Assembly (NCBI GenBank): GCA_035376985.1
Contig: DAOSSA010000004.1
Coordinates: 24-64,023, forward strand
Direction: 5' to 3'
Source of the DNA: Candidatus Brevefilum sp.
Lineage (GTDB): Bacteria > Chloroflexota > Anaerolineae > Anaerolineales > Anaerolineaceae
Length of the DNA: 64,000 nt
The notes under the pieces are model-generated. The model searched no databases, was not told the DNA's origin, and saw only the letters and a list, made by a program, of their open reading frames with translations. How positions within the stretch are numbered: the stretch's first letter is position 1; each line of letters starts with the position of its first letter. Positions 1 to 63,303 of this stretch are shown here, in pieces. Both the position numbers and the translations under genes were made by a program.

Positions 1-2
1 AC

Positions 3-34684: not shown

Positions 34685-34694
34685 CCTGCCCGAA

Positions 34695-35306: not shown

Positions 35307-35348
35307 ATTACGCCTCCTGGCTTGATCATCTTCTTGCCTTATGCGGAA

Positions 35349-35436
35349 GGGTCGCGATCTCGCGAGCTCATTGCCGGGGAATGAGCGAGAAATTCCCAGC
35401 CAGCTTTGTCCGGCGAGGTTACCCTGATGACGACCC
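35349..35436 (-). ncRNA. candidate structured RNA in the pcp 5' leader
   Basis: Between TG-c-TATAAT (35454-35462, minus strand) and the pcp SD: closing stem GGGUCG/CGACCC, AGG-GUAA-CCU, GCCGG/CUGGC, and a long CUCGC-UCAUU/AAUGA-GCGAG arm. Confidence 0.45.
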
Positions 35437-35541
35437 GGTTTTGTTTTGGGTTGATTATAGCACTCATTTTTCCAGGCAAGCTTTACAGGGCTTTTCTAAG
35501 GTGAATAACAGGGTGATTTTCTTATCTTCATGGCTTGCCTG

Positions 35542-35550
35542 TGATATAAT
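35542..35550 (+). promoter_or_regulatory. extended -10 promoter (TGaTATAAT) of the ssnA-cof-xdh operon
   Basis: Consensus TGnTATAAT 47 bp upstream of the ssnA ATG. Confidence 0.6.
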
Positions 35551-35597
35551 TTTTTTGTAAATTAATCGTTTGTGATATTCTGACAGGAGAAAATGAT

Positions 35598-36953
35598 ATG
35601 CTGATCACCAATGGGAAACTGATACCATGGGGTTCTGAATATCAGGTCATGCCCGAGGGCTGGGGTCTTCTGATCCGCGATGGTGTGATTCAGAAGATTG
35701 CACCTCAAAATGAACTGATTAAGGATTATCCCGAAGAAGAAATTTTAGATGCCGGGGGTCAATACGTGATGCCGGGAAATATCTGCGCCCACACCCATTT
35801 TTACGGCGCTTTTTCACGCGGTTTGGGCATTCCTGGGGAGCCCGCCAGCACCTTTACGGAGATTCTGGAAAAACTCTGGTGGAATCTCGATAAAGCTCTG
35901 GATGAAGATGGCGTCCGCTATTCAGCACTGGTGTGTCTGGTGGATGCGATTAAGCACGGTACCACAACGTTAATTGACCACCATGCCTCACCCACTGCGA
36001 TTGATGGCTCATTGGATATCATCGCTGAGACGATAAACCAGGCTGGTCTGCGGGCATCCCTGTGTTACGAGGTCACCGATCGGGATGGGGCTGAAAAATC
36101 CGAGCAAGGTTTGCAAGAAAACCTGCGCTTTGTTAAGCGAATCCAGAATAGGGACCCGCAGGATTCGCTGCTGCGGGCGCATTTTGGCCTACACGCCAGC
36201 CTGACCCTGTCGGATGAAACCCTGTCTCGCGCGGAAGAACTTTGCCCTGCGGGGATTGGATTCCACATCCATGCTGCTGAGGGAATGGCAGACCAGGTCT
36301 TTAGCCTTGAAACCTCGGGAAAGCGGGTTGTCCATCGCCTGGATCAATTTGGGATATTGCGGCCCGAATCAATTTTGGCGCATGGCGTGCATCTGGACCA
36401 GGGTGAAATTGAACGCCTGGCAGAAACGCAAACCTGGCTGACGCACCAACCCCGTTCGAATATGAACAATGCCGTTGGCGTGGCTCCGATTGAAGATATG
36501 CTGGACGCGGGCATGCGAGTTGGTATGGGAAATGATGGTTTTTCTAATACGATGTGGTTGGAATGGAAAGAGGCGTACCTGCTGCACAAACTGTACCATC
36601 GCGATCCACAGCGGATGGGCGGTTACACCGTAACCAGGATCGCTGTTGACAACAACGCTGCGCTGGTGACTGAGCTGTTTGACGGCTTGCTGGTAGGCTG
36701 TATATCTGAGGGTGCCGCGGCTGATTTAATCTTCGTTGATTATCACCCCTTTACACCATTGACAGGCGGAAACCTGCCCTGGCATATCCTGTTTGGTTTC
36801 CAGGAAAGCATGGTCACAGCCACCATCGTCGCCGGTAAACCCCTGATGTACCAGCGACAGTTGATGACTCTTGATGAGGACGCGATCGCGGCCAGGGCGT
36901 TAGAAATTGCATCAGAGACCTGGAAACGGTTCGAAGAGATTGCTACCCAATAA
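35598..36953 (+). CDS. ssnA: SsnA-like amidohydrolase
   Basis: PGNICAHTHFY, GTTTLIDHHAS, HFGLHASLTLSD, FHIHAAE, HQPRSNMNNAVG, GNDG. Confidence 0.88.
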   Translation: MLITNGKLIPWGSEYQVMPEGWGLLIRDGVIQKIAPQNELIKDYPEEEILDAGGQYVMPGNICAHTHFYGAFSRGLGIPGEPASTFTEILEKLWWNLDKALDEDGVRYSALVCLVDAIKHGTTTLIDHHASPTAIDGSLDIIAETINQAGLRASLCYEVTDRDGAEKSEQGLQENLRFVKRIQNRDPQDSLLRAHFGLHASLTLSDETLSRAEELCPAGIGFHIHAAEGMADQVFSLETSGKRVVHRLDQFGILRPESILAHGVHLDQGEIERLAETQTWLTHQPRSNMNNAVGVAPIEDMLDAGMRVGMGNDGFSNTMWLEWKEAYLLHKLYHRDPQRMGGYTVTRIAVDNNAALVTELFDGLLVGCISEGAAADLIFVDYHPFTPLTGGNLPWHILFGFQESMVTATIVAGKPLMYQRQLMTLDEDAIAARALEIASETWKRFEEIATQ

Positions 36954-36991
36954 GCCTTTACCGGTTGAAAACAGAAGATAAGGAATACAGC

Positions 36992-37678
36992 ATGGTTGAT
37001 GAGACAAAACAATTGTATACACTCGGCATCGTTGGCGGGACAGGGAAAGAAGGCAAAGGTTTAGCTTACCGCTGGTTAAAAGCTGGGCATAAAGTCATTA
37101 TCGGCTCACGCAACTTTGAAAAAGCTCAGAAAGCAGTCGTAGAGCTGACTGAATTCATGGGCTATACCCCAGAAGGACTGAGCGGTATGGATAACAGGGC
37201 TGCCGTAGAAGCCTGTGACATTGCAGTGATAACCGTACCCTATGCCGGGCACAAATCTACCCTGGAAGATTTAAAAGATGCCTTGCAGGGCAAAATTGTG
37301 ATGGACGTTGTTGTCCCGCTTGTACCGCCGAAAGTTTCTAAGGTGCAAATGCCTGAATCGGGTTCTGCAGCGCAGGAAGCCCAGGCAATCTTAGGAGACG
37401 CGTGCCAGGTTGTGGATGCTTTTCAAAATATTTCTCATGAAAGGCTGTTGGGAGAGGGCGATACGGATTGTGATGTTTTGGTGTGCGGAAAAAGTAAGGC
37501 CGCGCGCGAGGTCGTGATCGGGTTGGTGGCTGATACCGGATTGAAGGGGTGGGACGCCGGACCGATTGAAAATGCGGTTGTTGTGGAAGGATTAACCTCG
37601 GTATTGATCGGTCTTAACCAGCAATACAAGGTGCATGTTGCCGGCATTCGCATCACCGGAATTTCTGATCAAACATAA
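36992..37678 (+). CDS. npdG: NADPH-dependent F420 reductase (F420H2:NADP+ oxidoreductase)
   Basis: GIVGGTGKEGKGLA, IIGSR, TVPY, DVVVPL, AFQNIS, DVLVCG, DAGPIENA. Confidence 0.92.
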   Translation: MVDETKQLYTLGIVGGTGKEGKGLAYRWLKAGHKVIIGSRNFEKAQKAVVELTEFMGYTPEGLSGMDNRAAVEACDIAVITVPYAGHKSTLEDLKDALQGKIVMDVVVPLVPPKVSKVQMPESGSAAQEAQAILGDACQVVDAFQNISHERLLGEGDTDCDVLVCGKSKAAREVVIGLVADTGLKGWDAGPIENAVVVEGLTSVLIGLNQQYKVHVAGIRITGISDQT

Positions 37679-37679
37679 G

Positions 37680-38447
37680 ATGGGACTGAACCTGATCCCA
37701 TTAGAAGGCTTTCCCCTGGTCAAGCCCGGGGATGACCTGGCGAGTCTGGTTGTAGAAGTTTTGGCAAAGAACGGCTTTTCGCTGCAAGACGGTGACATCG
37801 TGGTACTTGCGCAGAAGATTGTTTCCAAGGCAGAGGGCCGCCTGGTCAACCTGACAACAGTCGATCCCTCAGAAGCTGCGCTGGATTATGCACACATCAC
37901 TGGAAAAGACCCGCGTTTGGTCGAGTTGATTCTGTCGGAATGCCGGGAGGTCGTACGTGTCCGCCAGGGATTGATGATTGTCGAGCATCGCCTGGGTTTC
38001 ATCAGCGCCAATGCGGGCATTGATCATTCGAATGTTTCCGGTCCCTGGGGTGAGCCCAAAGATTGGGTTCTATTATTGCCTGAAGACCCGGATGCTTCAG
38101 CAGCGCACCTTCGGGCGCAATTGCAGGCTCGCTATGCTTGCCGCCTGGGCGTCTTGATCATTGATTCGCACGGGCGCGCCTGGCGTAATGGAACCATCGG
38201 GATGACGATTGGATTATCCGGGCTGCCGGGCCTGATCGATTTGCGCGGACAAGAGGACTTGTTTGATTTCCGCTTGCGGGTTACGCAGGTGGCTGCCAGT
38301 GATGAATTAGCAGCAGGCGCATCGCTGATGATGGGGCAGGCTCGGGAGGGGACTCCGGTAGTGCTGGCGAGAGGATTCCCATACCCGCTGCGTGAGGCAT
38401 CGCTGTCTGAGTTGATCCGGAACAAGGAATTCGACCTGTTTAGATGA
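37680..38447 (+). CDS. cofE: coenzyme F420-0:L-glutamate ligase (single domain)
   Basis: AQKIVSKAEGR, ANAGIDHSN, LLPEDPDASA, DSHGRAWRNG, DELAAGA. Confidence 0.93.
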   Translation: MGLNLIPLEGFPLVKPGDDLASLVVEVLAKNGFSLQDGDIVVLAQKIVSKAEGRLVNLTTVDPSEAALDYAHITGKDPRLVELILSECREVVRVRQGLMIVEHRLGFISANAGIDHSNVSGPWGEPKDWVLLLPEDPDASAAHLRAQLQARYACRLGVLIIDSHGRAWRNGTIGMTIGLSGLPGLIDLRGQEDLFDFRLRVTQVAASDELAAGASLMMGQAREGTPVVLARGFPYPLREASLSELIRNKEFDLFR

Positions 38448-38454
38448 GGCTTTG

Positions 38455-39009
38455 ATGTACGCCATAATCAGCGAGTTAGATCAAGAATCTTCGGTCGTCG
38501 TCAAAGACCTGTGGGGCAGGTTGCGGGAGGCTTGCGGACTGATGGCAATTTATGAGCTCCCGACGCCGCACTTTACCTGGTTTGTTGCTGAAAACCTGGA
38601 TGTTCCTGCCATTGAGGACATTCTGGCTGAACTTTCCGCCAGCACCTGTCTGTTAACCAGCTATGTATTTGGCTTCGGTATTTTTTCTGGAGAAAGGCCG
38701 GTTTTTTATCTACCTTTGGTCAAATCGCAGGCGATGATAGATCTTCACAATGAAATTTGGCGCCGATCGATTGAGCATAGTGAGCAACCCAATCCATACC
38801 TTTCACCTTCTTTCTGGATGCCGCATATCACCCTGGCAATTAATGATATAACTCGGGAAAGCCTGGCATGTGCTCTTGAATCGGTTGCCTTTGACGCGGT
38901 GGAAATGGAAGTTTCTGGGAGTAACTTGATCGTTGTATCACAGAGCGATGCCTCATCAACGATGACTTATAAACGATTTTATTTTAAGAGTTACGGGAGC
39001 GTATTTTGA
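38455..39009 (+). CDS. 2H phosphoesterase (2'-5' RNA ligase/cyclic phosphodiesterase superfamily)
   Basis: Two intact HxT motifs: PHFTW and PHITLA. Confidence 0.8.
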
Positions 39010-39950
39010 AAGTTGTCGCATTGACCGGTGGGGTGGGCGGCGCAAAGCTGGTCAATGGACTGGCAGCGCTGCTATCACCGGAAGAGCTGAGTGTGATCGT
39101 CAATACTGGCGATGATTTTGACTGCTGGGGGTTGAGGGTCTGCCCTGACCTTGACACGGTGTGTTATACCCTGGCTGGTCTGGCCAACCCGAAGACGGGA
39201 TGGGGACAGAAAGATGAAACCTGGGAAATTCTTGAAAAGGTTAGAAACTTGGGCGGGTCGACCTGGTTTAAAATCGGCGATAATGATTTGATAACCCACC
39301 TGAGGCGAACAGAGCTGCTCTCGGAAGGGAAAGCGCTTTCATCCGTGACACAGAATTTGTGCTCAACCTGGGGCGTAAAACTCCAGGTTCTTCCAATGAG
39401 CGACGATCCTGTTCGGACCATTGTCCATACTGCAGAACACGGTGCGCTGGCATTTCAACGCTATTTTGTTCAGTTGGCCTGTCAACCGGTCGTGCGTGCA
39501 TTTGAATTTTGTGGGGCTGAGGTTGCGTCTCCCGCACCCGGCGCTCTTGCTTTGATTGATGAGGCTGATGTGGTCATCTTCACGCCCTCCAACCCCTTTG
39601 TCAGTATTGACCCGATCCTGGCAATTCCCGGGTATCGTCAAGCGATCAAAAAGAAGCCCGTCATCGCTATTTCGCCCCTGGTGGGCGGAAAAGCAATAAA
39701 AGGCCCTACTGCGAAAATGTACCACGAGCTGGGAATTGTGCCTTCAGCCTCAGCAGTTGCCGGGCACTATCAGGGTTTACTGTGGGGGTTTGTTTTTGAC
39801 ACGCAGGACCGAACTGAATTGGAAAAAATTGAGCGTTGGCGTATAATTCCATTACTTACAAATACCTTTATGAAAGATATTCAGGACCGCATTCGCTTGG
39901 CTGAAGAAGTGATAAAATTTTGCGAGTCGATCCTCACCAGGAGTTTTTAA
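39006..39950 (+). CDS. cofD: 2-phospho-L-lactate transferase
   Basis: [44 protein letters not shown]. Confidence 0.95.
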
Positions 39951-39954
39951 ATCC

Positions 39955-40569
39955 ATGAGTTTATGGACAATCGTTCCAGTTAAACCTTTACGACGCGGAA
40001 AATCGCGACTTTCGGAGATTCTCTCCGAAGATGAACGTTACCGACTTAATCATTACCTGTTATCCCATACCATTGACATATTATTACAGGTAGAAACAAT
40101 CTCAGAGATCCTGGTAGTCAGTCGAGATTCCGATGTGCTGACAATTTCTCGAGAAAAGGGTGTGCGCACGGTGACAGAGAATGGCACACCAGAATTGAAT
40201 AATGCATTGCGAAGAGCCTCTTTATTTTCAAAGCTGTTTGCAAATGAGGGTGTCCTCATTGTCCCGGCGGACTTACCCCTGATAACCTCTAAGGATGTTA
40301 GCGACTTTCTTGCACAGCGCAAAGAACCGCCGACCATGGTGATCAACCCTGATCGCCACCGGTTGGGTACAAATATGTTGTTCTTAAATCCGGCAGGTCT
40401 GATCAACTTTTCTTTCGGCACCGATTCTTTTGAATGCCATTGCAGATTGGCCAGGCAACAAGGTGCAGAGGTGATTGTTCATGAAAATCCACGCATCGCT
40501 TTAGACTTGGATGTTCCGGAGGATTATGAAATCCTCCAATCGAGCAATGTTTTACCAGTGCGACAGTAA
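39955..40569 (+). CDS. cofC: 2-phospho-L-lactate/PEP guanylyltransferase
   Basis: IVPVKPLRRGKSRLS, LNNAL, PADLP, GTN, SF..H, DLDVPED. Confidence 0.93.
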   Translation: MSLWTIVPVKPLRRGKSRLSEILSEDERYRLNHYLLSHTIDILLQVETISEILVVSRDSDVLTISREKGVRTVTENGTPELNNALRRASLFSKLFANEGVLIVPADLPLITSKDVSDFLAQRKEPPTMVINPDRHRLGTNMLFLNPAGLINFSFGTDSFECHCRLARQQGAEVIVHENPRIALDLDVPEDYEILQSSNVLPVRQ

Positions 40570-40600
40570 ATGGTTAATAAATTAGTGGAAAAGGAAAAAA

Positions 40601-41602
40601 ATGACAATAGAAAGAGTAGCCCTGTATTTACAAGATGCCCATGACCTGCGAGATGGATTGGATTTTGTAAAATATGCTGAAGAGCGAGGTTTTGAGGCGG
40701 TTTGGCAGGCTGAAAGCCGCCTGGTTCGAGATGCCATTGTGCCAATGGCTGCCTATGCTGCAGTTACCGATAAAATCAAGGTTGGGTCTGGCGTCATCAA
40801 CAACTGGACCCGTAATATCGGTTTGCTGGCATCGACATTTCTCACGCTGGACGACCTGGCGCCAAACCGGATTATTTGCGGCATTGGCGCCTGGTGGGAT
40901 CCACTGGCAAAGAATGTGGGCATCGTCCGTAAAAGCCCAATGACGGCGATGGAAGAGACCATCACCGTCTTGCGTCGCCTGTTGAACATGGAACGGGTGT
41001 CGTTTGACGGCGAATATGTACATGTCACCGGGATTGAACTGGATGTGGTGCATGGTCGTCGTGAACCCCGGAATGTCCCGATTATGATCGGGGCAACTGG
41101 TCCAAAGATGATGGAGTTGACTGGAAAAATTGCAGATGGCGCTGTTTTAAATTACTGTGTTCCGCCAGAATATAATGAACAGGCGATTGATGAGCTGAAG
41201 AAGGGCTTGAAAGCATCTGGACGGACTTTGGATGATCTGGATCGCCCACAACTGGTTGTGTGCTCTGTCGACGAGGATGGCGAGAAAGCCAAAGACACCA
41301 GCCGTGAACTGCTGACGCAATACCTGGCACAACAGCCACATATTGCGAAGGCTTCCGGTGTTTCGATGGATATTGTGCACGAGATCCAGTCGATTCTTGG
41401 CTGGCCTGCCACGCATGAGCAAATCCAGCAAGCCAAGCACCTGGTACCGGATGAGTTGATCCATCGCATTACAGCCAGCGGCACCCCTGATGAGGCACGC
41501 GTCAAGGTGCAGGAATATATTAATAACGGTGCAACCTGCCCGATCCTCTACCCTGTTGGCGGCAATGTGAAGGTTTTGATTGATACTTTTGCTACAAAAT
41601 GA
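40601..41602 (+). CDS. luciferase-like (LLM) oxidoreductase, Mer-like, probably F420-dependent
   Basis: [34 protein letters not shown]...G..ADG; immediately follows the cof genes. Confidence 0.85.
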
Positions 41603-42078
41603 AATTAACTGAGAAACAACCTGGTTCGAAAACTTGTTTTGTGTGCGGCAGGGAAAACCTGGCTGGACTCAAACTTGAGTTTTATGTGATTGAACCCGGG
41701 AAGGTTTGTTCGTATTTTAACTTGCCTGAGCATTATGAGGGCTATCCCGGGACCATCCACGGCGGTATCATCGCTGCCATACTGGATGAATGTGGCGGTC
41801 GGGCTCAAATGACCGAGCCAAACCGATTTATGGTTACCGCTCAATTATGTATCCGTTATCGCCGACCGGTTCCATCGCGAACAGACCTGGTCGTCTACGG
41901 AGAAGCAGGTGAACGCCGAGGACGGGTATCCTTTGCCCGCAGCGAAATCCAGAGTGTAGATGGAAAGATTCTGGCTGATGCTGAATTGGTGCTGATGGAC
42001 ATTCCTGAATCTCAGTTTGCGGATGTGGATCTGGAAGCAATGGGTTGGCGGGTTTATCTTGATGAGGAGGCTGGATGA
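41599..42078 (+). CDS. PaaI-family hot-dog thioesterase
   Basis: [37 protein letters not shown]. Confidence 0.88.
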
Positions 42079-42848
42079 TTGGTGAATATTTCAGACCAAA
42101 GACAGTAGAAGAGGCGTTGTTATTATTAACCGAAAAGGGAAAGATTCGGAAACCTCTGGGTGGCGGAACCAGCTTGAGCCGGCAGGTATCACGACATTTC
42201 GACGTGGTCGACTTGCAAAACGTTGGTTTGGATCGCATTGAGGAAAGCGGTCAAAACTTAGTGGCAGGGAGCACGCTTCGTTTTGATTTGCTTTTAGCAC
42301 ACCCCGGGGTTCACCCTGAGATCAAGCGAGCAATCCGCATTGATGCTTCAGAAAACAACCGAAACATGGCTACCCTGGGCGGATGGATGGTGAACAGCGA
42401 TGGTCGTTCGCTGACGACAACCGCATTGCTGGCAATGGATGCAAATTTAACCTGGGAGCCAGAGGCTGTTCAGATACGGCTTGGCGATTGGCTGCCCCTG
42501 CGCAGTCAGAATCAACCCGGCGTGTTGATGACAGAGGTAGCCTGGACCACGGGCGCAAGGCTTGTTTTTGAGTATGTGGCGCGCTCTCCGAAGGACCGCC
42601 CAACCATGATTGTGGCTATGGCTCAGTGGGGTTCAGGCAGGACACGTGTGGCCTTGGGTGGCTTTGGCGATGCGCCCATCATCGCTGTAGATGGCATAGG
42701 AGCCGATGGGGTGGATATCGCCAGTCGGTATGCCTGTTTAGAGGCTGGAGATCAATGGGCGTCTGCGGAGTACCGGCGTGAGGTCGCTGCAAAACTTGCC
42801 TTGCGTTGTGCGGCGCGTGTGGATGCCATCAAAGGAAGTGGTGCCTGA
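42075..42848 (+). CDS. molybdenum hydroxylase FAD-binding subunit, YgfM-like
   Basis: EYFRPKTVEEAL, LGGGT, RNMATLGG; short (257 aa). Confidence 0.75.
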   Translation: MIGEYFRPKTVEEALLLLTEKGKIRKPLGGGTSLSRQVSRHFDVVDLQNVGLDRIEESGQNLVAGSTLRFDLLLAHPGVHPEIKRAIRIDASENNRNMATLGGWMVNSDGRSLTTTALLAMDANLTWEPEAVQIRLGDWLPLRSQNQPGVLMTEVAWTTGARLVFEYVARSPKDRPTMIVAMAQWGSGRTRVALGGFGDAPIIAVDGIGADGVDIASRYACLEAGDQWASAEYRREVAAKLALRCAARVDAIKGSGA

Positions 42849-42849
42849 G

Positions 42850-45846
42850 ATGAAAATCATACTGAATATTAACAATCAAGACTATCCCCTTAATGTTCCT
42901 GTTGGCGAGCGTTTACTGGAAACCCTGCGAAGGCTTGGTTTTTTCAGTGTCAAGTACGGCGGATGTGAAAAAGGAGAATGCGGCGCATGTGCTGTGCTTT
43001 TTGACGGTCGCCCGGTAAATAGCTGCACAATGTTTACAGCCCAGGCTGAAGGTCACAAAATCCAGACCGTGGAAAGCCTGGGTGAACACCCGGAACAGGG
43101 TTGGAAACGGACGCAGGGTTTGCATATTATTCAGCAAGCCTTTGTCGATACGGGTGCGATCCAGTGCGGTTACTGTACGCCAGCCATGGTATTGGTGAGC
43201 AAAGCCCTGTTAAATAAAAACCCTTCGCCCTCGGAAGAGGAAATTCGTGATGCCCTTTCTGGCGTCCTGTGCCGCTGCACCGGTTATGTGAAGCCGGTAC
43301 AGGCCGTTATGCGAGCTGCGGCGACCATGAGGGGTGAAAAGGTTCCTCCCATTGGTGAGCCAATTGATATTGGTGATTTATTAGATTTTGATCGGGGTCT
43401 CCCGGAGGACGGTGCGCCGATGACCTCTGACGGCGGAACAATGACTGAAACGCTGGTCTTCCCGAAGATAAAGGTCGTTGATGCGCGTTCACCATTGAAA
43501 ACGGTGGGTCACGGTGAACCTAAGGTGGATGCGGTCAAACTTGTGCAGGGCAAACCAGCCTTTGCTGCAGATTTTGAAAGGCGGGACATGCTGGTAGCCA
43601 AGGTGCTGCGAAGTCCCCATGCCCACGCGAACATCAAGCACATTGATACCTCGGAAGCAGAGGCGCTTCCTGGTGTGGCAGCCATTCTTACCTGGAAGGA
43701 TATTCCCAGGGTTGTCTATTCTACGGCTGGACAATCGCATCCCATTCCGGGACCGTTAGACATGTTTTCACTGGACAAAAAGGTCCGCTTTGTAGGCGAC
43801 AAGGTGGCGTTTGTGGCTGCTGAAACAGCTGAGATCGCAGAAGCCGCGTTGAAACTGATCAAGGTGGAATATGAAGTCTTGCCTGCCATTATTGATCCCA
43901 CCAAAGCGATGGATGAAGGCGCTGTGGTCATTCATGATGAAGAAGAATACGTCAATTTTGATGAATCTGACCCCTCGCGCAACCTGGCTGCTGAGATCCG
44001 CGTGGATATCGGCGATGTTGAACAGGGTTTTGCCGAGGCAGAGCGCATCTTTGAAGCTGAATACGTTGTACCCAAGGTGCAGCAGGCGCATATCGAACCG
44101 CACGTGGTGGTGACATACTGGGATGAGGACGACCGCCTGGTGATTATCACCAGCACCCAGGTGCCCTTCCACGTCCGGCGCCAGATTGCTCCGGTGTTAG
44201 ATTTGCCGGTCAAGCGTATCCGGGTGATCAAACCCCGCATCGGTGGCGGTTTTGGCGGCAAGCAAGAAGTTCAGATCGAAGATGTTCCGGCACATCTGAC
44301 GATTGCGACGGGACGCCCTGTTATTTATGAAATGACCCGTGAGGAGGAATTTATTGGCTCCCGGGCACGCCATCCCATGCGCATTCGGTTGAAAACCGGG
44401 GTCAAGCAGGACGGCACGATAACTGCGAATGAAATGTACTGCCTGAGCGATACCGGCGCTTATGGGTGCCATGCTCTGACCGTGGCAGGAAATACCGGGC
44501 ATAAGGCGATGGCGCTGTATGTCGGTGACGGACCCTACCGCCAACAGCCCAATATCCGGTTTTATTCCGATGTTGTCTATACCAATACGCCGCCTTCAGG
44601 CGCCTTCCGTGGTTACGGTGTTCCACAAGGATTCTGGCCTGTTGAACGGCACATGGAGACAATTTCAAAAGCTCTAGGCATCGATCCGATTGAATTCAGG
44701 TTGATGAATGCCCTCAGACCAGGCGAGTTACACCCCTTCAGTACAGCCTGGAGCGAGGGACGAGAACCCAAGCCTGAAAAAGTGTACACGATTGGCCTGG
44801 AAGAGTGCGTCTATCAGGGCAGGATGGCCATTGATTGGGACCATAAGTTTGGTAACGCGGCATGGCACACCATCCCTGGCAGCGAGCATTTGCGCAAGGG
44901 AATTGGGGTTGCTATGGTGATGCAGGGGACTGCTATCCCCTACCTGGATATGGGCGGCGCCAGTATTAAAATGAATGATGACGGGTCATTTAACCTGCTG
45001 GTCGGCGCTACAGACCTGGGGACCGGTTCGGACACGGTATTGGGTCAGATGGCAGCCGAAACCCTGGGCGTTCGTTTGGACGATATCCTGGTGTATTCAT
45101 CGGACACGGATTTCACACCCTTTGATGTGGGTGCTTACGCATCCAGCACAACGTACATCTCCGGTACAGCAGTGGTCAAAGCAGCAGAGAAGGTCGCTGA
45201 GCAGATTCGCGAGCGGGCAGCCTTGATGTTTGCTGAAAATGGCGATGAGGTGGACCATAACGAGATACTGCTGGAAGACCGGAAGGCAATTGCACCTTCA
45301 GGCAATTCCTTCAGTATGGAAGAGATTGCCCTGCACGCGCTGCACGCATCCGATCAGAGGCAAATTATGGGAGTTGCTTCGCATGTGTCCCCGGTTGCTC
45401 CACCGCCTTTTGCAGCGCAATTTGCTGAGGTGACCGTTGATATTGAAACCGGTATGGTTACAGTGGATAAACTGGTTATGGCCGTTGATGGCGGTGTGAT
45501 CATCAACCCTGTCACAGCATCAGGTCAGGTTGAAGGCGGGATGGCCCAGGCCCTGGGTTACGCGGTGACCGAAGAAATGGTATACGATGATTTAGGACGG
45601 GCGAGGGAGCGTGACCTTGTGGACTATCACATTTTCCGCTCGGATGAAATGCCTGAACTGACGACTATTTTCGTGGAAACCTACGAACATTCACATCCTT
45701 ATGGCGCAAAAGCTGTTGCGGAAATCCCGCTGGATGGAGTTGCACCTGCTGTTGGTAATGCGATATTAGATGCGTGCGGAGTTTCACTGCACGAAATCCC
45801 TGCCTTGCCCGAGAAAATCTGGAAAGCTTTAACAACCTCGGAATAA
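42850..45846 (+). CDS. molybdopterin-dependent oxidoreductase with fused N-terminal 2x[2Fe-2S] domain, XdhD-like
   Basis: GCEKGECGAC, QCGYC, CRCTGY, IGGGFGGK, GAFRGYG, ASSTT, GQVEGG, AKAVAE. Confidence 0.9.
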   Translation: MKIILNINNQDYPLNVPVGERLLETLRRLGFFSVKYGGCEKGECGACAVLFDGRPVNSCTMFTAQAEGHKIQTVESLGEHPEQGWKRTQGLHIIQQAFVDTGAIQCGYCTPAMVLVSKALLNKNPSPSEEEIRDALSGVLCRCTGYVKPVQAVMRAAATMRGEKVPPIGEPIDIGDLLDFDRGLPEDGAPMTSDGGTMTETLVFPKIKVVDARSPLKTVGHGEPKVDAVKLVQGKPAFAADFERRDMLVAKVLRSPHAHANIKHIDTSEAEALPGVAAILTWKDIPRVVYSTAGQSHPIPGPLDMFSLDKKVRFVGDKVAFVAAETAEIAEAALKLIKVEYEVLPAIIDPTKAMDEGAVVIHDEEEYVNFDESDPSRNLAAEIRVDIGDVEQGFAEAERIFEAEYVVPKVQQAHIEPHVVVTYWDEDDRLVIITSTQVPFHVRRQIAPVLDLPVKRIRVIKPRIGGGFGGKQEVQIEDVPAHLTIATGRPVIYEMTREEEFIGSRARHPMRIRLKTGVKQDGTITANEMYCLSDTGAYGCHALTVAGNTGHKAMALYVGDGPYRQQPNIRFYSDVVYTNTPPSGAFRGYGVPQGFWPVERHMETISKALGIDPIEFRLMNALRPGELHPFSTAWSEGREPKPEKVYTIGLEECVYQGRMAIDWDHKFGNAAWHTIPGSEHLRKGIGVAMVMQGTAIPYLDMGGASIKMNDDGSFNLLVGATDLGTGSDTVLGQMAAETLGVRLDDILVYSSDTDFTPFDVGAYASSTTYISGTAVVKAAEKVAEQIRERAALMFAENGDEVDHNEILLEDRKAIAPSGNSFSMEEIALHALHASDQRQIMGVASHVSPVAPPPFAAQFAEVTVDIETGMVTVDKLVMAVDGGVIINPVTASGQVEGGMAQALGYAVTEEMVYDDLGRARERDLVDYHIFRSDEMPELTTIFVETYEHSHPYGAKAVAEIPLDGVAPAVGNAILDACGVSLHEIPALPEKIWKALTTSE

Positions 45847-45855
45847 AGATGAGCT

Positions 45856-45899
45856 AACCTTCCGCCGATTGTTTGAATGGACACATTTGGCGGAAGGTT
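45856..45899. other. 11-bp intercistronic hairpin
   Basis: AACCTTCCGCC/GGCGGAAGGTT with a 22-nt loop and no long U tract. Confidence 0.55.
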
Positions 45900-45955
45900 T
45901 AACCTCGAGGAATAATATTTGTTCCTGGAGTTTTGAGTTTGATTGAGGATTTGTG

Positions 45956-46744
45956 ATGAACATTGTCGAGCTGTTGAATGAAGCTTTAGCAGAGGGAAAG
46001 CCTGTTGTGATGTGCACGATTGTGAACACAAAAGGTTCTGTGCCGAGGCACGCAGGCACCAAAATGCTGGTTTACAGTGAAGGGCATTTTGAAGGCACGG
46101 TTGGCGGGGGTGAGGTGGAAAACCGGATTCTTGCTGAAGCAATGGCAGCATTTAAAGATGGAAAAACCCGTTTTTTAACCTACGATATGATCGATCCTGA
46201 ACGCGGTGATGCAGGCATTTGCGGCGGGATTGTGACCGTCTTCGTGGAGCCGTTTCTGACATTGCCAACTGTCGTTGTCGTTGGCGCCGGGCATGTCGGG
46301 CGGCCGATTGTGCACCTGGCAAAGTGGCTTGGGTTTCGTGTGGTCGTGAGCGATGATCGCGAGGAACTGTGCACCCCGGAGGAAACACCAGGCGCAGACC
46401 TGTACCTGCCAGCCCTGATAAGCCAGATACCAGAAAAATTACCCCTGGATTCACGCACATTCCTGGTGCTGGTTACCAGGGGCTCGGATATTGATGTGGA
46501 AGGTTTGCCAGCCCTTTTAGAAACGGATGTGCCGTATATCGGCTTGATTGGTTCTAAACGGCGTTGGGCGCATACACAAGAGAAACTGATTGAAAAAGGG
46601 GTCTCGAAGGAAGCCTTGGCAAGGGTGAAATCACCGATCGGGTTATTTATTCATGCAGAAACGCCCAATGAAATCGCCATCAGCATTATGGCTGAGATCA
46701 TCGATCATTACAACCAGATGAAAAAACATTTTCAAAGAGCATAA
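45956..46744 (+). CDS. xdhC: XdhC/CoxF-family molybdenum cofactor insertion protein
   Basis: GSVPRHAGTKM, GTVGGG.VE, CGG, GAGHV, YIGLIGS, PIG, ETPNEIA. Confidence 0.9.
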   Translation: MNIVELLNEALAEGKPVVMCTIVNTKGSVPRHAGTKMLVYSEGHFEGTVGGGEVENRILAEAMAAFKDGKTRFLTYDMIDPERGDAGICGGIVTVFVEPFLTLPTVVVVGAGHVGRPIVHLAKWLGFRVVVSDDREELCTPEETPGADLYLPALISQIPEKLPLDSRTFLVLVTRGSDIDVEGLPALLETDVPYIGLIGSKRRWAHTQEKLIEKGVSKEALARVKSPIGLFIHAETPNEIAISIMAEIIDHYNQMKKHFQRA

Positions 46745-46761
46745 ATTGGAGTTAACGGCGT

Positions 46762-48180
46762 ATGTGGAAAAAATACATTTTAGCAGATTCAATTGAGGCA
46801 GCGGTTGCGGCTTTGACCGAAGCGGAAGAAACCGCGCGGATTATCGCTGGCGGTACCGATCTGATTCTTGAGCTGGAGCGTGGTACTCGTCAGGGCATCA
46901 GCACTCTGATTGATATCACCCAAATACCGGGTTTGGATGAAATTTGGGAAGACAGCGACGGCTTGATCCACATCGGTCCATTGGTGACTCATAATCACGT
47001 GCTGGCCTCACCGTTGATCCGTGAGAAAGCCTTTGCTCTCCTGCAAGCCTGTTGGGAGGTTGGCTCACCTCAAATCCGCAATCGAGGGACGGTCGTTGGC
47101 AATTTAGTAACAGCATCCCCGGCGAATGATACCATCAGCCCTTTGATGGCCCTTAAGGCAAAGCTCAGGCTGGTGTCAACTCGGGGAGAACGCATCGTCT
47201 CCCTGGAGGATTTTTACACTGGTGTACGCAAAACTGTGATGAAAAACGATGAAATCATTACGGAAGTATTCTTCCCAGCGCCTGGAACTCACCAGGTATC
47301 CTATTTTATTAAAACAGCCCTGCGCAAAGCCCAGGCAATCTCAGTCATTAATATCAGCCTTCTGCTGTCGATACAGGGAGATGTGATCGATGATGCCAGG
47401 ATTACCCTGGGTGCAGCTGCGCCAACGATCATCCATGCTGAGGCAGCGGAAGCCTTTCTTTCCGGAAAGCAGTTAAGCGACACAGTGATTGAACAGGCGG
47501 CTGAATTGGTGGCTGAGGCTGCATCACCGATTTCGGATTTGCGCGGCTCCGCCGATTATCGGGCGTACATGATGGGCGTAATCGCACGACGAGCTTTGAC
47601 CGCCATTGCCAACGGTGTCGATAAAACCCAAATTCCGAGTGAACCGATTTTGCTGATGGGGTCGGGCTTGCATGTAAAAGCACCCCAATTGCCCTGGACG
47701 GGCGAGGAGATCCACACCTGGATCAACGGGAAGGAATATCGTTTTAGAACAGGATTTTCAAAGACATTATTAAATTTGATCCGTGATGAGGCGGGGTTAA
47801 CCGGCACGAAAGAAGGTTGCGCTGAAGGTGAGTGCGGCGCCTGTACGGTTTACTTGGATGGCAGGGCAGTGATGAGCTGCCTGGTACCGGCGCCCCGGGC
47901 GCATGGCGCAGAGATTGTAACGATCGAGGGCATGCGCGCTGGTGAAAAATTGCACCCGGTTCAGGAAGCTTTCATCGAACACGGCGCAGTTCAATGCGGT
48001 TTTTGTACTCCCGGGTTTGTGATGTCAGCGGTCAAGTTGCTTGAAGAGCGCGAAACCCCTTCACAGGCTGAGATCCGGCAGGCAATTACCGGGAACCTGT
48101 GCCGCTGTACAGGCTATTATAAGATCATTGAAGCGATTGAGAGCGCCAGCCAGCGGATGCATGCTGGTGACCAGGTATAA
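46762..48180 (+). CDS. xanthine dehydrogenase FAD-binding subunit fused to a C-terminal [2Fe-2S] subunit
   Basis: IAGGTD, SPQIRNRGT, then GTKEGCAEGECGAC, QCGFC, GNLCRCTGY. Confidence 0.9.
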   Translation: MWKKYILADSIEAAVAALTEAEETARIIAGGTDLILELERGTRQGISTLIDITQIPGLDEIWEDSDGLIHIGPLVTHNHVLASPLIREKAFALLQACWEVGSPQIRNRGTVVGNLVTASPANDTISPLMALKAKLRLVSTRGERIVSLEDFYTGVRKTVMKNDEIITEVFFPAPGTHQVSYFIKTALRKAQAISVINISLLLSIQGDVIDDARITLGAAAPTIIHAEAAEAFLSGKQLSDTVIEQAAELVAEAASPISDLRGSADYRAYMMGVIARRALTAIANGVDKTQIPSEPILLMGSGLHVKAPQLPWTGEEIHTWINGKEYRFRTGFSKTLLNLIRDEAGLTGTKEGCAEGECGACTVYLDGRAVMSCLVPAPRAHGAEIVTIEGMRAGEKLHPVQEAFIEHGAVQCGFCTPGFVMSAVKLLEERETPSQAEIRQAITGNLCRCTGYYKIIEAIESASQRMHAGDQV

Positions 48181-48198
48181 AGCAGAACAGGAGTTAGC

Positions 48199-50409
48199 AT
48201 GGCATATATTGGTAAATCTGTAACACGGATTGATGTCAGAGACAAAGTTACGGGAGAAGCACTTTACCCCGCTGACTTTTCGCTGCCAGACCAGGCATAT
48301 ATGAAAATTCTATTTGCAGGGAGACCTCACGCAGTGGTCAAAGCGATCGACACAACTGCGGCAGAAGCCATGCCCGGCGTTCTGGCTGTATTGACGGCAA
48401 AGGATGTGCCGGTGAACGAATACGGGCTAGGAACGAACGATCAGCCTGTTTTGTGTGGACCGGGGTCATCCAAACCCTTCGCGGATCGGGTACGGTTTGT
48501 GGGAGACCAGGTGGCGCTGGTTCTGGCTGACACTGAGCAGATTGCAGCTGAAGCTTGCAAGAAGATCGTCGTTGACTATGAAGATCTGCCGGTGTTTGAT
48601 TCGCCAGAGGCTGCCATGGTGGATGATGCCGTCTTGCTGCATCCGGATCATGGGTCAAATGTTATTCTTGAATATCAAATCTTGCATGGTGATGTGGAAT
48701 CCGCATTTGGCGATTGCGATGTAATTGTAGAATGCGAGTATCACACACCAATGCAGGAGCATGCATATCTGCAGCCTGAAGCCGGGGTCAGTTATTTCGA
48801 CGAGGAAGGACGGGTCACGGTTGTTGTGGCCGGTCAATGGACACATGAAGATCGAAACCAAATTGCCCATTCGCTGGACCTTCCCCTTGACCGGGTGCGG
48901 GTGATATACCCGGCGATTGGCGGCGCATTTGGCGGTCGTGAGGATATGTCGGTGCAGATTGTACTGGCGTTAGCTGCTAAATATTTACATGACCGGGGGA
49001 TCAACCGTCCGGTAAAAGTCGTCTGGAGCCGAGAAGAATCGATCATTGGTCATCACAAGCGCCACGCCTACAAACTGGTTGCTAAATGGGGTGCCACAAA
49101 AGATGGGAAGATCATCGCTGCCCAGGTGGATGTGACGGCTGATGGCGGCGCGTATGTGTACACATCGAACAAAGTGCTTGGCAACGCTACATTGATGAGC
49201 ATCGGCCCCTATGAGATTCCCAACGTGCAGGTGAATTCGAGGGCAGTGTATACGAACAACGTTCCAGGGGGCGCATTTCGCGGATTTGGCGGACCGCAAG
49301 GGGTGTTTGAGGCGGAAATGCAGGTCAATCGCCTGGCAGAAGCTTTGGGTATGGACCCGGTTGAGTTGAGAATGCGCAATTTGATTGAAGACGATTCGAT
49401 TTTGTGCACCAATACCAAGCCACCCAAGGGCGTGACGATTAAACCCGTGTTGGAAGTTTGTGCAACCAGGGCTGGCTGGGCTAACACGGACACAGGCTGG
49501 AACGCGCCGGCGAAAATGGGTTCCACAGATGCCCTGAAACGCGGCCGCGGCTTGGCGGTTGCTTTCAAGAATATTGGTTTTTCATTTGGTGCAAAGGAAA
49601 ATTGCCATGCAAAAATTGAATTGCATGGAAAAACAGAGATTGAGCGCGTTGTGTTATATCACGCTGGTGCAGAGGTGGGCCAGGGTGCGCACACAATTTT
49701 CAAGCAGTTCGCTGCTGAAGCTCTGAATGTTCCGCTGGAGAAAATCGAAACGGAGTATTCAGATACAGCTTTTACCGGAGATGCAGGCAGTGTTTCAGCA
49801 TCACGAATGACCTTTATGGCGGGTAACGCGATTAAGGGAGCGGCAGATTTAGCTCTGGAGAAATGGGCAGCAGAAGAACGGCCTGCAATCGGTGATTATG
49901 TCTATTTTGCACCTCCAACCTCACGTTATGCACCTGTTACCGGGGAGTGTTATCCAAATATTTCTTATGGTTATGTGACAGAAGTGGTTGAGCTGGAAGT
50001 GGATACAGAATCTGGCAATGTCCGGATATTGAAGATCTATTGTGCGGACGATGTCGGTAAGGCGATTAACCCGATGCAAGTTGTCGGTCAGATTGAAGGT
50101 GCACTGGTCCAGGCGGTGGGATATGCAGTCCTGGAAAACTTCATCCACAAGGGTGGATACGTCCAAACCAATTTGTTGTCGAATTATTTAATTCCCACGG
50201 TGTTGGATATCCCGGATGAAATTGAATCAATCGTCCTGGAATACGCTGAACCCAACGGCCCATATGGTGCACGGGGTATGGCTGAGATGCCTTTTCTGCC
50301 ATTAGCACCAGCGGTGATGCATGCGATGTATGATGCGACCGGTGTGTGGTTCCACGAATTTCCCCTCACGCCGGAACGGGTGCTGCGGGGTTTGGGAAAA
50401 ATAAAATGA
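48199..50409 (+). CDS. xanthine dehydrogenase/purine hydroxylase molybdopterin-binding subunit
   Basis: QEHAYLQPE, IGGAFGGR, GAFRGFG, SASRMT, GQIEGA, GARGMAE. Confidence 0.92.
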   Translation: MAYIGKSVTRIDVRDKVTGEALYPADFSLPDQAYMKILFAGRPHAVVKAIDTTAAEAMPGVLAVLTAKDVPVNEYGLGTNDQPVLCGPGSSKPFADRVRFVGDQVALVLADTEQIAAEACKKIVVDYEDLPVFDSPEAAMVDDAVLLHPDHGSNVILEYQILHGDVESAFGDCDVIVECEYHTPMQEHAYLQPEAGVSYFDEEGRVTVVVAGQWTHEDRNQIAHSLDLPLDRVRVIYPAIGGAFGGREDMSVQIVLALAAKYLHDRGINRPVKVVWSREESIIGHHKRHAYKLVAKWGATKDGKIIAAQVDVTADGGAYVYTSNKVLGNATLMSIGPYEIPNVQVNSRAVYTNNVPGGAFRGFGGPQGVFEAEMQVNRLAEALGMDPVELRMRNLIEDDSILCTNTKPPKGVTIKPVLEVCATRAGWANTDTGWNAPAKMGSTDALKRGRGLAVAFKNIGFSFGAKENCHAKIELHGKTEIERVVLYHAGAEVGQGAHTIFKQFAAEALNVPLEKIETEYSDTAFTGDAGSVSASRMTFMAGNAIKGAADLALEKWAAEERPAIGDYVYFAPPTSRYAPVTGECYPNISYGYVTEVVELEVDTESGNVRILKIYCADDVGKAINPMQVVGQIEGALVQAVGYAVLENFIHKGGYVQTNLLSNYLIPTVLDIPDEIESIVLEYAEPNGPYGARGMAEMPFLPLAPAVMHAMYDATGVWFHEFPLTPERVLRGLGKIK

Positions 50410-51227
50410 AACCGTTTGTGCTCATCCGGGGCGGCGGCGACCTGGCAAGCGGGGTTGCGATTCGATTGCATCGGGTGGGCATTCCTGTTTTAATTGTTGA
50501 AACCAACCAACCAACGGCCGTGCGGCGTTCAGTTGCCTTTGCACAGGCAGTTTATGATGGTGAAGCATTGATCGAAGGCACAGCCGGACGATTGATCGGA
50601 TATCCAGAAGAGATGCTGTCTTGCTGGAACGAGGGCACGGTGCCGGTCATGGTTGACCCCGAACTGGAATTGATTTCAGTTTTCAAACCATTGGTGATTG
50701 TTGATGGGCGGATGCGAAAAACCAGCCAGGTTCTTTCCCTGGATATGGCGCAACTGGTGGTTGGGTTGGGACCGGGATTTACAGCGGGTGAGAACTGCCA
50801 TGCAGCGATTGAAACTAATCGAGGACATTTTCTGGGACGGGTTTACTGGCAGGGCAGTCCGCAAGCAAATACCGGCATCCCAGGGGAGGTTGAGGGTTAT
50901 ACTCGGGAGCGGGTGTTGTATGCCCCGACTGATGGAATTGTTCAGACCCTGGTTGATTTTAGCGACCATGTGCAGCCAGGTGACCCGGTGATTACTATCG
51001 GAAATCAGACCATAAAGGCGTCTCTTGCGGGCCTTGTGCGTGGGCTGATCCACCCGGGTATTTGGGTTAAGCAAGGCACAAAGGTAGCCGATATTGATCC
51101 GCGAACTGAAGATTTTCGCTGCTGGACAGTTTCAGAAAAAGCCCTGGCGATAGGCGGTGGGGTTTTGGAGGCAATTTTGACCCAACCTGAAATTCGTGCT
51201 TCCCTGTGGAATGAACTGGACCAATGA
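50406..51227 (+). CDS. yqeB: selenium-dependent molybdenum hydroxylase system protein YqeB (EF2563 family)
   Basis: VLIRGGGDLASGVA, AVRRSVAF, LGPGF, ETNRGH.LG, GTKVADIDPR, SEKALAIGGGVLEA. Confidence 0.92.
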   Translation: MKPFVLIRGGGDLASGVAIRLHRVGIPVLIVETNQPTAVRRSVAFAQAVYDGEALIEGTAGRLIGYPEEMLSCWNEGTVPVMVDPELELISVFKPLVIVDGRMRKTSQVLSLDMAQLVVGLGPGFTAGENCHAAIETNRGHFLGRVYWQGSPQANTGIPGEVEGYTRERVLYAPTDGIVQTLVDFSDHVQPGDPVITIGNQTIKASLAGLVRGLIHPGIWVKQGTKVADIDPRTEDFRCWTVSEKALAIGGGVLEAILTQPEIRASLWNELDQ

Positions 51228-52570
51228 ACCTGAGGCTGGCGCTCGGATTAACTGGTGTTGAGACGATTGCCTTTACAGGCGCTGGCGGGAAGACCAGCGC
51301 CATGGCAACCCTGGCTATGGAACTGCCACCGCCTGTTGTGATGATCACTACCACGCACCTGGGAAAGTGGCAAGAAGGCATCGCCCAGCAGCATATCATT
51401 ATCACATCGCCTGATGCTTTGAAGAAAAGTGACTTGTTGGGCTTGAAGACGATCCTGGTCACCGGACCTCCCGGTAAAGATGAACGCTGGGGAAGCCTTA
51501 ACCCGGAATCGCTTGAGAAACTATCCCGGATATGCCGTGAAAACGAGGTGCCCTTGCTGATTGAAGCGGATGGCGCTCGTCAATGCCCGCTTAAAGCGCC
51601 TGCAGATTACGAACCGGTGATTCCATCCTGGGTTGACCGGGTGGTGGTTATGGCCGGGCTGGGCGGCCTAAGAAGACGATTGAGTGCGGATACGGTACAC
51701 AGGCCGGAGTTGTTTTCGCAAATAGCCGGTCTGGCGATGGGGGAGGAAATCAAAGTTGAGCATGTGGAACGAGTGTTGCGCTCAACTTCGGGTGGCTTAA
51801 AAGGGACACCGGTTGGGGCGCGCCGAATTTTGTTCTTGAACCAGGCAGAGGATTCGGTTCGGAAAGCCCAGGGGAACAGGCTGGCTAATGCACTTGAGGA
51901 TGTTTACCAGCGGGTGCTGATTGGTTCGCTGGCACAGCCAGAAGCGGACGGACCGGTGTTCAGTGCGCACAGCCAAACGGCTGGTATTATCCTCGCTGCT
52001 GGTGGAAGTGAGCGATTGGGAGTTCCCAAACAGTTTTTAGATTGGTGCGGAAAACCGTTTATCGTCCAGGTGGCGCAAACTGCGCTAACGGCTGGATTAT
52101 CCCCGATGGTCGTGGTTACCGGTGCCCGCCAGACTGAAATAGAGACAGGTTTGGCAAATCTACCGGTCAGGTGTGTGTATAACCCTGAATGGGCGTCGGG
52201 GCAAGCATCATCGCTGAAGGTTGGCTTGAAATCCCTGCCCGACCATTGTGATTGCGCCATGTTTTTGCTCAGCGATCAGCCACAAATTACATCGCACCTG
52301 GTCCGTCAGTTAATTGAGCGGCATCATGCGGTGCGTGCACCGATTACCGCTCCGATGATCCGCGAGCGTCGGGGAAACCCGGTGCTGTTTGCCAGGCAAA
52401 CTTTTGGCGCGTTACGGGAAGTCAGCGGCGATCAGGGCGGGCGAGCCATATTTAACGCTTTTAAAGTTGACTATCTCCCCTGGGTTGATGAGCGTGCCCA
52501 GCTGGATGTTGACCAGGACAGCGACCTGAATAACCTGATCGAGCAGTATTTTGGTGGGCAAGCAAATTAA
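51224..52570 (+). CDS. yqeC: YqeC fused to a MocA-like molybdenum cofactor cytidylyltransferase
   Basis: GAGGKT, LIEADGA...PLKAP (YqeC), then ILAAGGSERLG..K, GQASS, LSDQP, DVD (NTP_transf_3). Confidence 0.9.
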   Translation: MNLRLALGLTGVETIAFTGAGGKTSAMATLAMELPPPVVMITTTHLGKWQEGIAQQHIIITSPDALKKSDLLGLKTILVTGPPGKDERWGSLNPESLEKLSRICRENEVPLLIEADGARQCPLKAPADYEPVIPSWVDRVVVMAGLGGLRRRLSADTVHRPELFSQIAGLAMGEEIKVEHVERVLRSTSGGLKGTPVGARRILFLNQAEDSVRKAQGNRLANALEDVYQRVLIGSLAQPEADGPVFSAHSQTAGIILAAGGSERLGVPKQFLDWCGKPFIVQVAQTALTAGLSPMVVVTGARQTEIETGLANLPVRCVYNPEWASGQASSLKVGLKSLPDHCDCAMFLLSDQPQITSHLVRQLIERHHAVRAPITAPMIRERRGNPVLFARQTFGALREVSGDQGGRAIFNAFKVDYLPWVDERAQLDVDQDSDLNNLIEQYFGGQAN

Positions 52571-52760
52571 TCAATCAAAGGCGCAGACCTTTTAAATCTT
52601 AATAGCTGTTTGGTGTTATTACTCACGAACGGGTAAAATGGAGCAGGTGGATGATCTGGAGAATTGTTTTTGATTGAACAGGGCTAAGGTTGCTGTTTGT
52701 TCTTCCTGATCTCGCCAGATGATAAAAAAATTATAAAGACTTTTGAGAGGATGCATATCG

Positions 52761-63200: not shown

Positions 63201-63303
63201 TCCATTGATTATGGTGATAAATGATTAATGAAGATGAATTCCCGGTTATTTTTTTGTTGATCAAAAAGTATTCTATCAAGCTGAACCTGCCTGGGGTAAT
63301 TTG

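Follow-up and report, generated by a model that had tools for sequence, protein, structure and literature searches.

We describe here a gene of the luciferase-like monooxygenase family (LLM) from Candidatus Brevefilum sp. (Anaerolineaceae; assembly GCA_035376985.1, contig DAOSSA010000004.1), which lies in a purine operon within a 64,000-nucleotide stretch of DNA that was analysed as a whole and is referred to as the window. Comparison of gene content, gene order and protein sequence across related genomes indicates that this Mer-like LLM (positions 40601 to 41602 of the window, forward strand) is probably an F420H2-dependent 2,8-dioxopurine (isoxanthine/yanthine) reductase, i.e. a non-homologous substitute for YgfK and for the clostridial enzyme UacX. 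A first-pass annotation of the window had proposed the same route, from NADPH via the oxidoreductase Fno and F420H2 to the LLM, in place of YgfK; our support for this proposal is strong but purely comparative. The prediction had been published earlier (Li et al. 2025, Life Metab 4:loaf031, PMC12507026), so that the first-pass annotation represents its independent rediscovery.

The anaerobic urate pathway was laid out in two studies in 2025. XdhD-YgfM (DOPDH) reduces urate to 2,8-dioxopurine, which is dearomatised by the NADPH-dependent YgfK (DOPOR) before SsnA opens the ring to ureidomethyl-hydantoin, an order of steps that the first-pass annotation had given correctly. The end steps are carried out by HyuA, YgeW/YqeA or UacY, YgeY and YgeX. 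In C. difficile, UacX, a PydA-like enzyme with flavin mononucleotide (FMN) and Fe-S clusters, stands in for YgfK. Both the role of YgfK and its substitution by UacX have been established experimentally.

The dearomatising step lacks a known enzyme in the Brevefilum genome

As stated in the first-pass annotation, no YgfK-like reductase is encoded in the operon. The same holds for the entire genome (2.35 Mb, 98% complete), in which the top match to the YgfK model TIGR03315 reached 267 bits as compared to a cut-off of 835. This match, on contig C6, was ruled out as YgfK, being an NfnAB/GltD-like fusion without the FMN barrel. An orthologue of UacX was not found in the genome either. Further pathway genes are located in a second purine cluster on contig C3 (82000-98200; locus L031), which encodes an 8-oxoguanine deaminase, YgeY, a GntR regulator, a carbamoyltransferase, a carbamate kinase, two pyridoxal-phosphate (PLP) enzymes and a D-hydantoinase. 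The D-hydantoinase (HyuA, 492 bits), YgeY (466 bits) and the carbamate kinase all scored above their cut-offs, the carbamoyltransferase below that of YgeW. No reductase was found in this second cluster; a ygfK gene linked to the remaining pathway genes at another locus, which the first-pass annotation had named as evidence that would speak against its proposal, is thus absent. Given a genome without YgfK or UacX and a second cluster without a reductase, the dearomatising step alone lacks a known enzyme.

The YgeX slot of the second cluster is occupied only by the two PLP enzymes, one ThrC-like and one CysK-like, which match the YgeX model weakly. This pair may replace diaminopropionate ammonia-lyase. 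The same pair adjoins SsnA in five LLM-carrying genomes (L138, L147, L148, L150 and L153).

LLM, YgfK and UacX show complementary distributions among Anaerolineae

We compared 201 evenly sampled Anaerolineae genomes, using conservation-weighted gene calling for GC-rich loci. Orthologues of the LLM were called at 63-80% identity, below which a gap separated them from paralogues at 52% or less. The LLM was present in 80 genomes, SsnA in 158, YgfK in 36 and a UacX-type orthologue in approximately 40. Among the 158 SsnA-positive genomes, 77 carried the LLM, 35 YgfK and 36 the UacX-type gene, 11 had none of the three, and a single genome combined YgfK with UacX. SsnA thus accompanied the LLM in 77 of its 80 genomes. 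Overlap of the LLM with YgfK or UacX was not observed in any of the 158 SsnA-positive genomes (Fisher p 1.7e-33, uncorrected for phylogeny), so that the anti-correlation between LLM and ygfK for which the first-pass annotation had proposed a check was indeed found, and extends to UacX. In genomes devoid of both LLM and YgfK, a UacX-type gene (PF01180 plus two 4Fe-4S clusters) was located beside SsnA in 12 of 20 sampled loci. The numbers of SsnA-positive genomes with YgfK and with UacX correct the published statement that Chloroflexota lack both enzymes (Li et al. 2025, PMC12507026). The sole overlap of two reductase types is found in genome G187 (contig C6:718324-725368), where YgfK and split UacX-like genes lie beside SsnA.

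When 73 SsnA sequences were placed in a maximum-likelihood tree, the three reductase types were interleaved. The LLM label requires 7 changes on this tree, at least 6 of which are forced by well-supported branches, and in some cases SsnA sequences that are sisters go with different reductases. The reductase has thus been swapped repeatedly. Exclusivity combined with interleaving is the pattern expected from repeated non-orthologous displacement at one step.

In four cases (L102, L109, L114 and L023) the gene immediately upstream of the LLM encodes an additional amidohydrolase besides the main SsnA, a paralogue with 44-45% identity to SsnA (28% in L023).

The LLM retains the deazaflavin backstop motif of Mer but not its pterin site

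The open reading frame (ORF) of the LLM is real: it encodes 333 amino acids, starts with ATG and is preceded by an AAGGA ribosome-binding motif approximately 8 nt upstream. Its first-pass description as a Mer-like LLM was borne out. The protein matches PF00296 (luciferase-like monooxygenase superfamily) with 212 bits (cut-off 27.9), and its 17 top NCBIfam matches are F420-type LLM families, each scoring below its own cut-off, while SsuD-type families reached at most 38 bits. Both Mer models remained under their equivalog cut-offs (NF002619, 179 versus 276 bits; TIGR03555, 173 versus 348.7 bits); sequence matches to Mer in the PDB reached E values down to 9e-44.

An AlphaFold2 (AF2) model was obtained from an alignment of 37 orthologues, down to 60% identity, with a predicted local distance difference test score (pLDDT) of 89.2. 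It was used instead of a model from 15 sequences (83-94% identity), for which the pLDDT was only 64. LLM structures were the top matches of the model, which superposed best on Mer (TM-score 0.86-0.88), and Foldseek ranked Mer, FGD1, Adf and FGD2 ahead of all FMN-dependent LLMs. As judged from the model, the protein is a (beta/alpha)8 barrel that is nearer to the F420-using than to the FMN-using members of the family. Mer (PDB 8QPL, 1Z69, 1F07, 1EZW) is the closest solved fold, with approximately 31% identity.

For comparison of the active sites, the LLM was aligned to jMer, whose functional residues were defined by mutagenesis. The cis-peptide backstop under F420 after beta-3 (G61-V62 in jMer) corresponds to G64-V65, which is invariant in the 37 orthologues, the cis conformation itself being unreadable from sequence. 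The carboxamide after beta-6, a pterin-site position, is kept as the invariant N184. In contrast, two further pterin-site residues are replaced, Asp96 by W99 within an invariant GAWWDP motif (W98-W99) and Phe233 by the clade-invariant Q240, and the position of the catalytic Glu6 is taken by an invariant Y9-L-Q-D12 motif at the end of beta-1. The genome moreover contains two canonical MetF genes. Identity of the LLM with Mer, or with a methylene-pterin reductase in general, was ruled out by the combination of scores below the cut-offs, changed residues and presence of MetF; its bacterial host and its purine-catabolism gene context set it further apart from Mer. The retained backstop motif, taken together with the altered pterin site and the MetF genes, suggests that the LLM binds the deazaflavin in a Mer-like manner, while its substrate is another one, probably aromatic and flat.

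Homologues at 78-94% identity were found in Anaerolineae only, including Pelolinea submarina, Bellilinea, Levilinea, Leptolinea, Longilinea and Anaerolinea metagenome-assembled genomes. Metagenomes containing the LLM sequence originated from activated sludge, digesters and bioreactors.

The LLM is encoded in an operon with SsnA, an F420 cassette and molybdenum hydroxylases

The operon spans approximately 17 kb, with all genes on the forward strand and junctions consisting of 4-nt overlaps or short gaps. Its gene order is SsnA-Fno-CofE-2H-CofD-CofC-LLM-hotdog-YgfM-XdhD-XdhC-second xanthine dehydrogenase (XDH; FAD/Fe-S subunit, molybdenum (Mo) subunit)-YqeB-YqeC/MocA. Profile matches of the neighbours thereby confirmed the first-pass placement of an F420 cassette, together with Fno and the LLM, between ssnA and ygfM. 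The genes are:

35598..36953, + strand: SsnA, ring-opening amidohydrolase of the 2,8-dioxopurine pathway (NF005540, 490 bits, cut-off 444; 36% identity to E. coli SsnA)
36965..37678, + strand: Fno/NpdG, NADPH:F420 oxidoreductase (TIGR01915, 201 bits, cut-off 150; PF03807); the true start probably lies slightly downstream of 36965
37635..38447, + strand: CofE, F420-0:gamma-glutamyl ligase (TIGR01916, 263 bits, above cut-off)
38452..39009, + strand: 2H phosphoesterase-like ORF of 185 amino acids between cofE and cofD (PF13563, 34 bits)
39006..39950, + strand: CofD, 2-phospho-L-lactate transferase (TIGR01819, 321 bits, above cut-off)
39955..40569, + strand: CofC, guanylyltransferase of F420 synthesis (TIGR03552, 155 bits, above cut-off)
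40601..41602, + strand: LLM, Mer-like, F420-type; candidate F420H2:2,8-dioxopurine reductase (PF00296, Mer matches, AF2 model, exclusivity with YgfK/UacX)
41599..42078, + strand: hotdog (4HBT) fold protein, translationally coupled to LLM and YgfM (PF03061, 38 bits)
42075..42848, + strand: YgfM-like FAD-binding subunit of a Mo hydroxylase (PF00941, 64 bits, weak; TIGR03312, 43 bits, below cut-off)
42778..45846, + strand: XdhD-like fused 2Fe-2S/Mo subunit, likely urate 6-dehydroxylase (2,8-dioxopurine dehydrogenase; 37% identity to E. coli XdhD)
45953..46744, + strand: XdhC-family Mo-cofactor insertion factor (NF045664, TIGR02964)
46762..48180, + strand: FAD and 2Fe-2S subunit of the second XDH-type enzyme (TIGR02963, XdhB/XdhC models)
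48199..50409, + strand: Mo subunit of the second XDH-type enzyme, PucD-like (TIGR03196, 555 bits, below cut-off)
50346..51227, + strand: YqeB, selenium-dependent Mo-cofactor maturation protein (TIGR03309, 342 bits, above cut-off)
51224..52570, + strand: YqeC-MocA fusion, selenium cofactor biosynthesis and Mo-cofactor cytidylyltransferase (TIGR03172, 157 bits, above cut-off; TIGR03310)

The XdhD-like protein scored 547 bits against E. coli XdhD versus 431 bits against XdhA. It carries the XdhD-specific loop that is missing from XdhA, and its residue E660 aligns with E606 of E. coli XdhD, for which a role in orienting urate for 6-dehydroxylation has been proposed.

The conservation of this arrangement was evaluated in the 80 nearest species, counting loci with enough flank. 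The colinear operon was the rule, with SsnA upstream of the LLM at 52 of 55 loci, Fno upstream at 51 of 55 and a Mo hydroxylase downstream at 46 of 56. Pelolinea submarina MO-CFX1 (locus L085) is one isolate with this operon. Where the LLM lies elsewhere in the genome, Fno nonetheless adjoined SsnA, as SsnA-Fno(-CofE), in 12 of 20 LLM genomes. Of 12 loci with LLM orthologues in other Chloroflexota classes (60-72% identity), 5 have Fno adjacent to the LLM and 3 have a three-subunit Xdh nearby.

Several further observations concern the operon and its surroundings. At five loci (L011, L012, L014, L017 and L025) a standalone nitroreductase (PF00881, resembling the C-domain of FbiB) takes the place of the 2H-like ORF; the nitroreductase homologues of the Brevefilum genome, located on contigs C18 and C27, are all distant. 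The order LLM-(hotdog)-YgfM-like is kept at loci where XdhD and SsnA are not nearby (L016, L022, L024 and L028), and in L028 the matches to the hotdog protein and the FAD subunit, which are adjacent, fall within a single ORF of 486 amino acids, possibly a fusion of both. An Rfam scan of the window revealed no riboswitch near the operon. Contigs from a biogas-fermenter run labelled as RNA-Seq (X18) cover positions 34500-53500 of the window, and hence the whole operon, at even depth, one of them spanning from ssnA to the start of the LLM gene; as the X18 contigs reach 72 kb, are indistinguishable from DNA and may reflect carry-over, they were not used as evidence for expression. The GC content at both ends of the window (1-4000 and 62001-64000) is 0.37-0.39 as compared to approximately 0.50 elsewhere, and these parts may be foreign DNA.

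The deazaflavin genes follow the LLM

CofD was detected in 63 of the 201 genomes, 59 of which carry the LLM; the other four have a divergent LLM-like gene, which adjoins CofD in two of them. True CofH was confined to LLM carriers (12 of 201 genomes). Because CofD and CofH track the LLM, and because the LLM is the sole member of its family in the Brevefilum genome, the deazaflavin system and the LLM appear to form one module that is tied to SsnA. The presence of Fno, CofC, CofD and CofE in the same operon indirectly supports the predicted use of F420 by the LLM.

Proposed reaction sequence

Based on these patterns we infer the substrate of the LLM, its site of hydride attack and its use of F420, and propose the following sequence. 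Urate would be dehydroxylated at C6 by XdhD-YgfM, yielding 2,8-dioxopurine. Fno would load a hydride from NADPH onto F420 (or FO), and the reduced deazaflavin, bound by the LLM as in Mer, would donate it to the pyrimidine ring at its electrophilic C6, with a proton added at C5, thereby breaking aromaticity. Hydride transfer to C6 of 2,8-dioxopurine would be chemically analogous to the attack of Mer on an iminium carbon. The dihydro product would then be hydrolysed to ureidomethyl-hydantoin by SsnA, encoded at the head of the operon, and HyuA, YgeY, the carbamoyltransferase and the carbamate kinase, encoded on the other contig, would complete the pathway.

Observations that weigh against the assignment, and alternative roles of the LLM

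A number of observations weigh against the role proposed here for the LLM. The assignment of its substrate is drawn solely from the gap in the pathway and from gene patterns, and the Fisher test of LLM versus YgfK/UacX ignores shared ancestry. Beyond Anaerolineaceae-like families, LLM and SsnA are mostly located on separate contigs; YgfK itself, however, lies within 10 kb of SsnA in only approximately 17 of 31 genomes of the class, and as it is so often unlinked to SsnA, the lost linkage of the LLM is not evidence against its role. Rather than SsnA, it is the YgfM-like FAD subunit that most constantly neighbours the LLM, whether or not a hotdog protein is also there, which could mean another role. 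Cofactor supply is a further difficulty. Despite the presence of Fno, CofC, CofD and CofE, an FO synthase (CofG/CofH/FbiC) was not found anywhere in the Brevefilum genome, and it is missing in 68 of the 80 LLM genomes. CofD is missing in 21 of the 80, even though SsnA-Fno-CofE are kept side by side (e.g. L136, L143, L147, L148 and L150); for CofE without CofD there is no obvious source of F420-0. The lack of FO synthase points to FO or F420 being salvaged, with methanogens that inhabit sludge and digesters as a possible source. Tentatively, the LLM may thus be a deazaflavin-dependent dearomatising purine reductase operating on salvaged cofactor, in which case the anaerobic fermentation of urate and purines by most carriers would depend on FO or F420 given off by nearby methanogens; we regard this extended proposal as possible but rather doubtful.

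The prominence of the YgfM-like subunit raises the question of whether the LLM acts elsewhere in purine catabolism, either on another heterocycle (xanthine, urate or the product of the second XDH) or by feeding electrons from F420H2 into YgfM-XdhD for urate dehydroxylation. The LLM-(hotdog)-YgfM-like/Xdh link was present at 12 of 21 diverse loci, often with the hotdog gene in between and even at loci without XdhD and SsnA, and the proximity to three-subunit Xdh in other classes points in the same direction. Furthermore, NAD(P)H does not serve clostridial XdhAC as reductant, and no physiological electron donor is known for this enzyme. We nevertheless consider such a role unlikely, given that strict exclusivity with YgfK and UacX is expected for an enzyme of the same step and not for one of another step, that XdhD must also receive electrons in genomes encoding YgfK or UacX, which nevertheless have no LLM, and that no other gene in the genome fills the reductase gap. 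The known F420-type LLMs, moreover, transfer hydride directly and are not known to act as electron-relay subunits.

A gene that might compete for the gap encodes a distant DHO_dh-like protein of 341 amino acids on contig C3 (55891-56913; L032:5889-6914, minus strand), directly downstream of pyruvate:ferredoxin oxidoreductase (PFOR). If this protein were the missing dioxopurine reductase, the LLM would have an unrelated F420-dependent function. With 50 bits, it is the genome's sole match to PF01180; it remotely resembles DHODH and dihydropyrimidine dehydrogenase in their FMN domains, and its orthologues track the LLM, occurring in 67 of the 80 LLM genomes. But its identity to the SsnA-adjacent UacX type is only approximately 25%, its neighbour is PFOR and not a purine gene, and its orthologues co-occur also with YgfK (9 genomes) and with UacX (3 genomes), are present in 14 SsnA-less genomes and are missing from 13 LLM genomes. 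The low identity, the PFOR neighbourhood and the co-occurrence with YgfK and UacX ruled the protein out as UacX. Its identification with the dioxopurine reductase would moreover leave the F420 cassette in the purine operon unexplained, and appears highly improbable to us. Since this is the only PF01180 gene, a canonical PyrD was not detected in the genome; orthologues of the protein were found in 92 of the 201 Anaerolineae.

It is about equally improbable that the LLM and the F420 cassette are a hitch-hiking module without a purine role, for instance a C1 enzyme resembling Mer or a dehydrogenase that would generate F420H2 for other uses. Among characterised proteins, Mer stands nearest to the LLM, and loci L015, L018, L020 and L175-L179 have no purine gene at a distance of 10 kb or less from the LLM. 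Such a module is opposed by the scores below the Mer cut-offs, the lack of conservation of Glu6, Asp96 and Phe233, the presence of canonical MetF, the occurrence of SsnA in nearly all LLM genomes with zero overlap with YgfK or UacX, and the recurrence of the SsnA-Fno adjacency and of the colinear operon over many genera. Reduction of 2,8-dioxopurine by the LLM therefore remains the role that we favour.

Relation to known systems and implications

The proposed role of the LLM is a variant of a known pathway that is already in print as a prediction, and the idea is as such not new. Li et al. 2025 (PMC12507026) described a presumptive luciferase-family 2,8-dioxopurine/yanthine reductase dependent on F420 next to SsnA in Chloroflexota, supported by genome-neighbourhood colouring and two sentences, with no assay. 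Our literature search did not turn up a biochemical test of this F420 enzyme. The gene in the window is an instance of that prediction, sharing with it the family (PF00296), the neighbourhood of SsnA and Xdh genes, the phylum and the proposed role. That paper mentions neither the embedded Fno-CofE-CofD-CofC cassette nor the absence of FO synthase nor the changes in the active site. What is added here is the three-way exclusivity, the link between SsnA and Fno, the changes in the active site and the problem of cofactor salvage, which render the case sharper and testable without making the concept new.

With YgfK/DOPOR of E. coli and C. sporogenes the LLM would share the reaction, the place before SsnA, a gene location beside ssnA-ygfM-xdhD and NADPH as the ultimate reductant, here via Fno. 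The two proteins are unrelated: YgfK, at approximately 1030 amino acids, combines an FMN barrel and a GltD-like FAD/NADPH domain with 4Fe-4S clusters, whereas the LLM is a 333-amino acid TIM barrel without Fe-S cluster or flavin of its own, which in its proposed role would depend on a diffusible deazaflavin. UacX of C. difficile also takes the place of YgfK in this step without homology to it, but it has the PF01180 fold, contains FMN and two 4Fe-4S clusters, is probably driven by ferredoxin and is likewise unrelated to the LLM.

If the assignment is correct, the LLM would represent a third non-homologous solution to the dearomatising step and would extend F420 chemistry to purine rings. As a small reductase without Fe-S clusters, it may be easier than YgfK to move into uricolytic probiotics, provided that the host is supplied with F420. 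Abundant Anaerolineae of wastewater and digesters would then ferment purines with a cofactor whose complete synthesis is beyond most of them. Should the cofactor indeed be salvaged, purine catabolism would gain its first F420 enzyme in the LLM, and cofactor cross-feeding would link Anaerolineae to methanogens.

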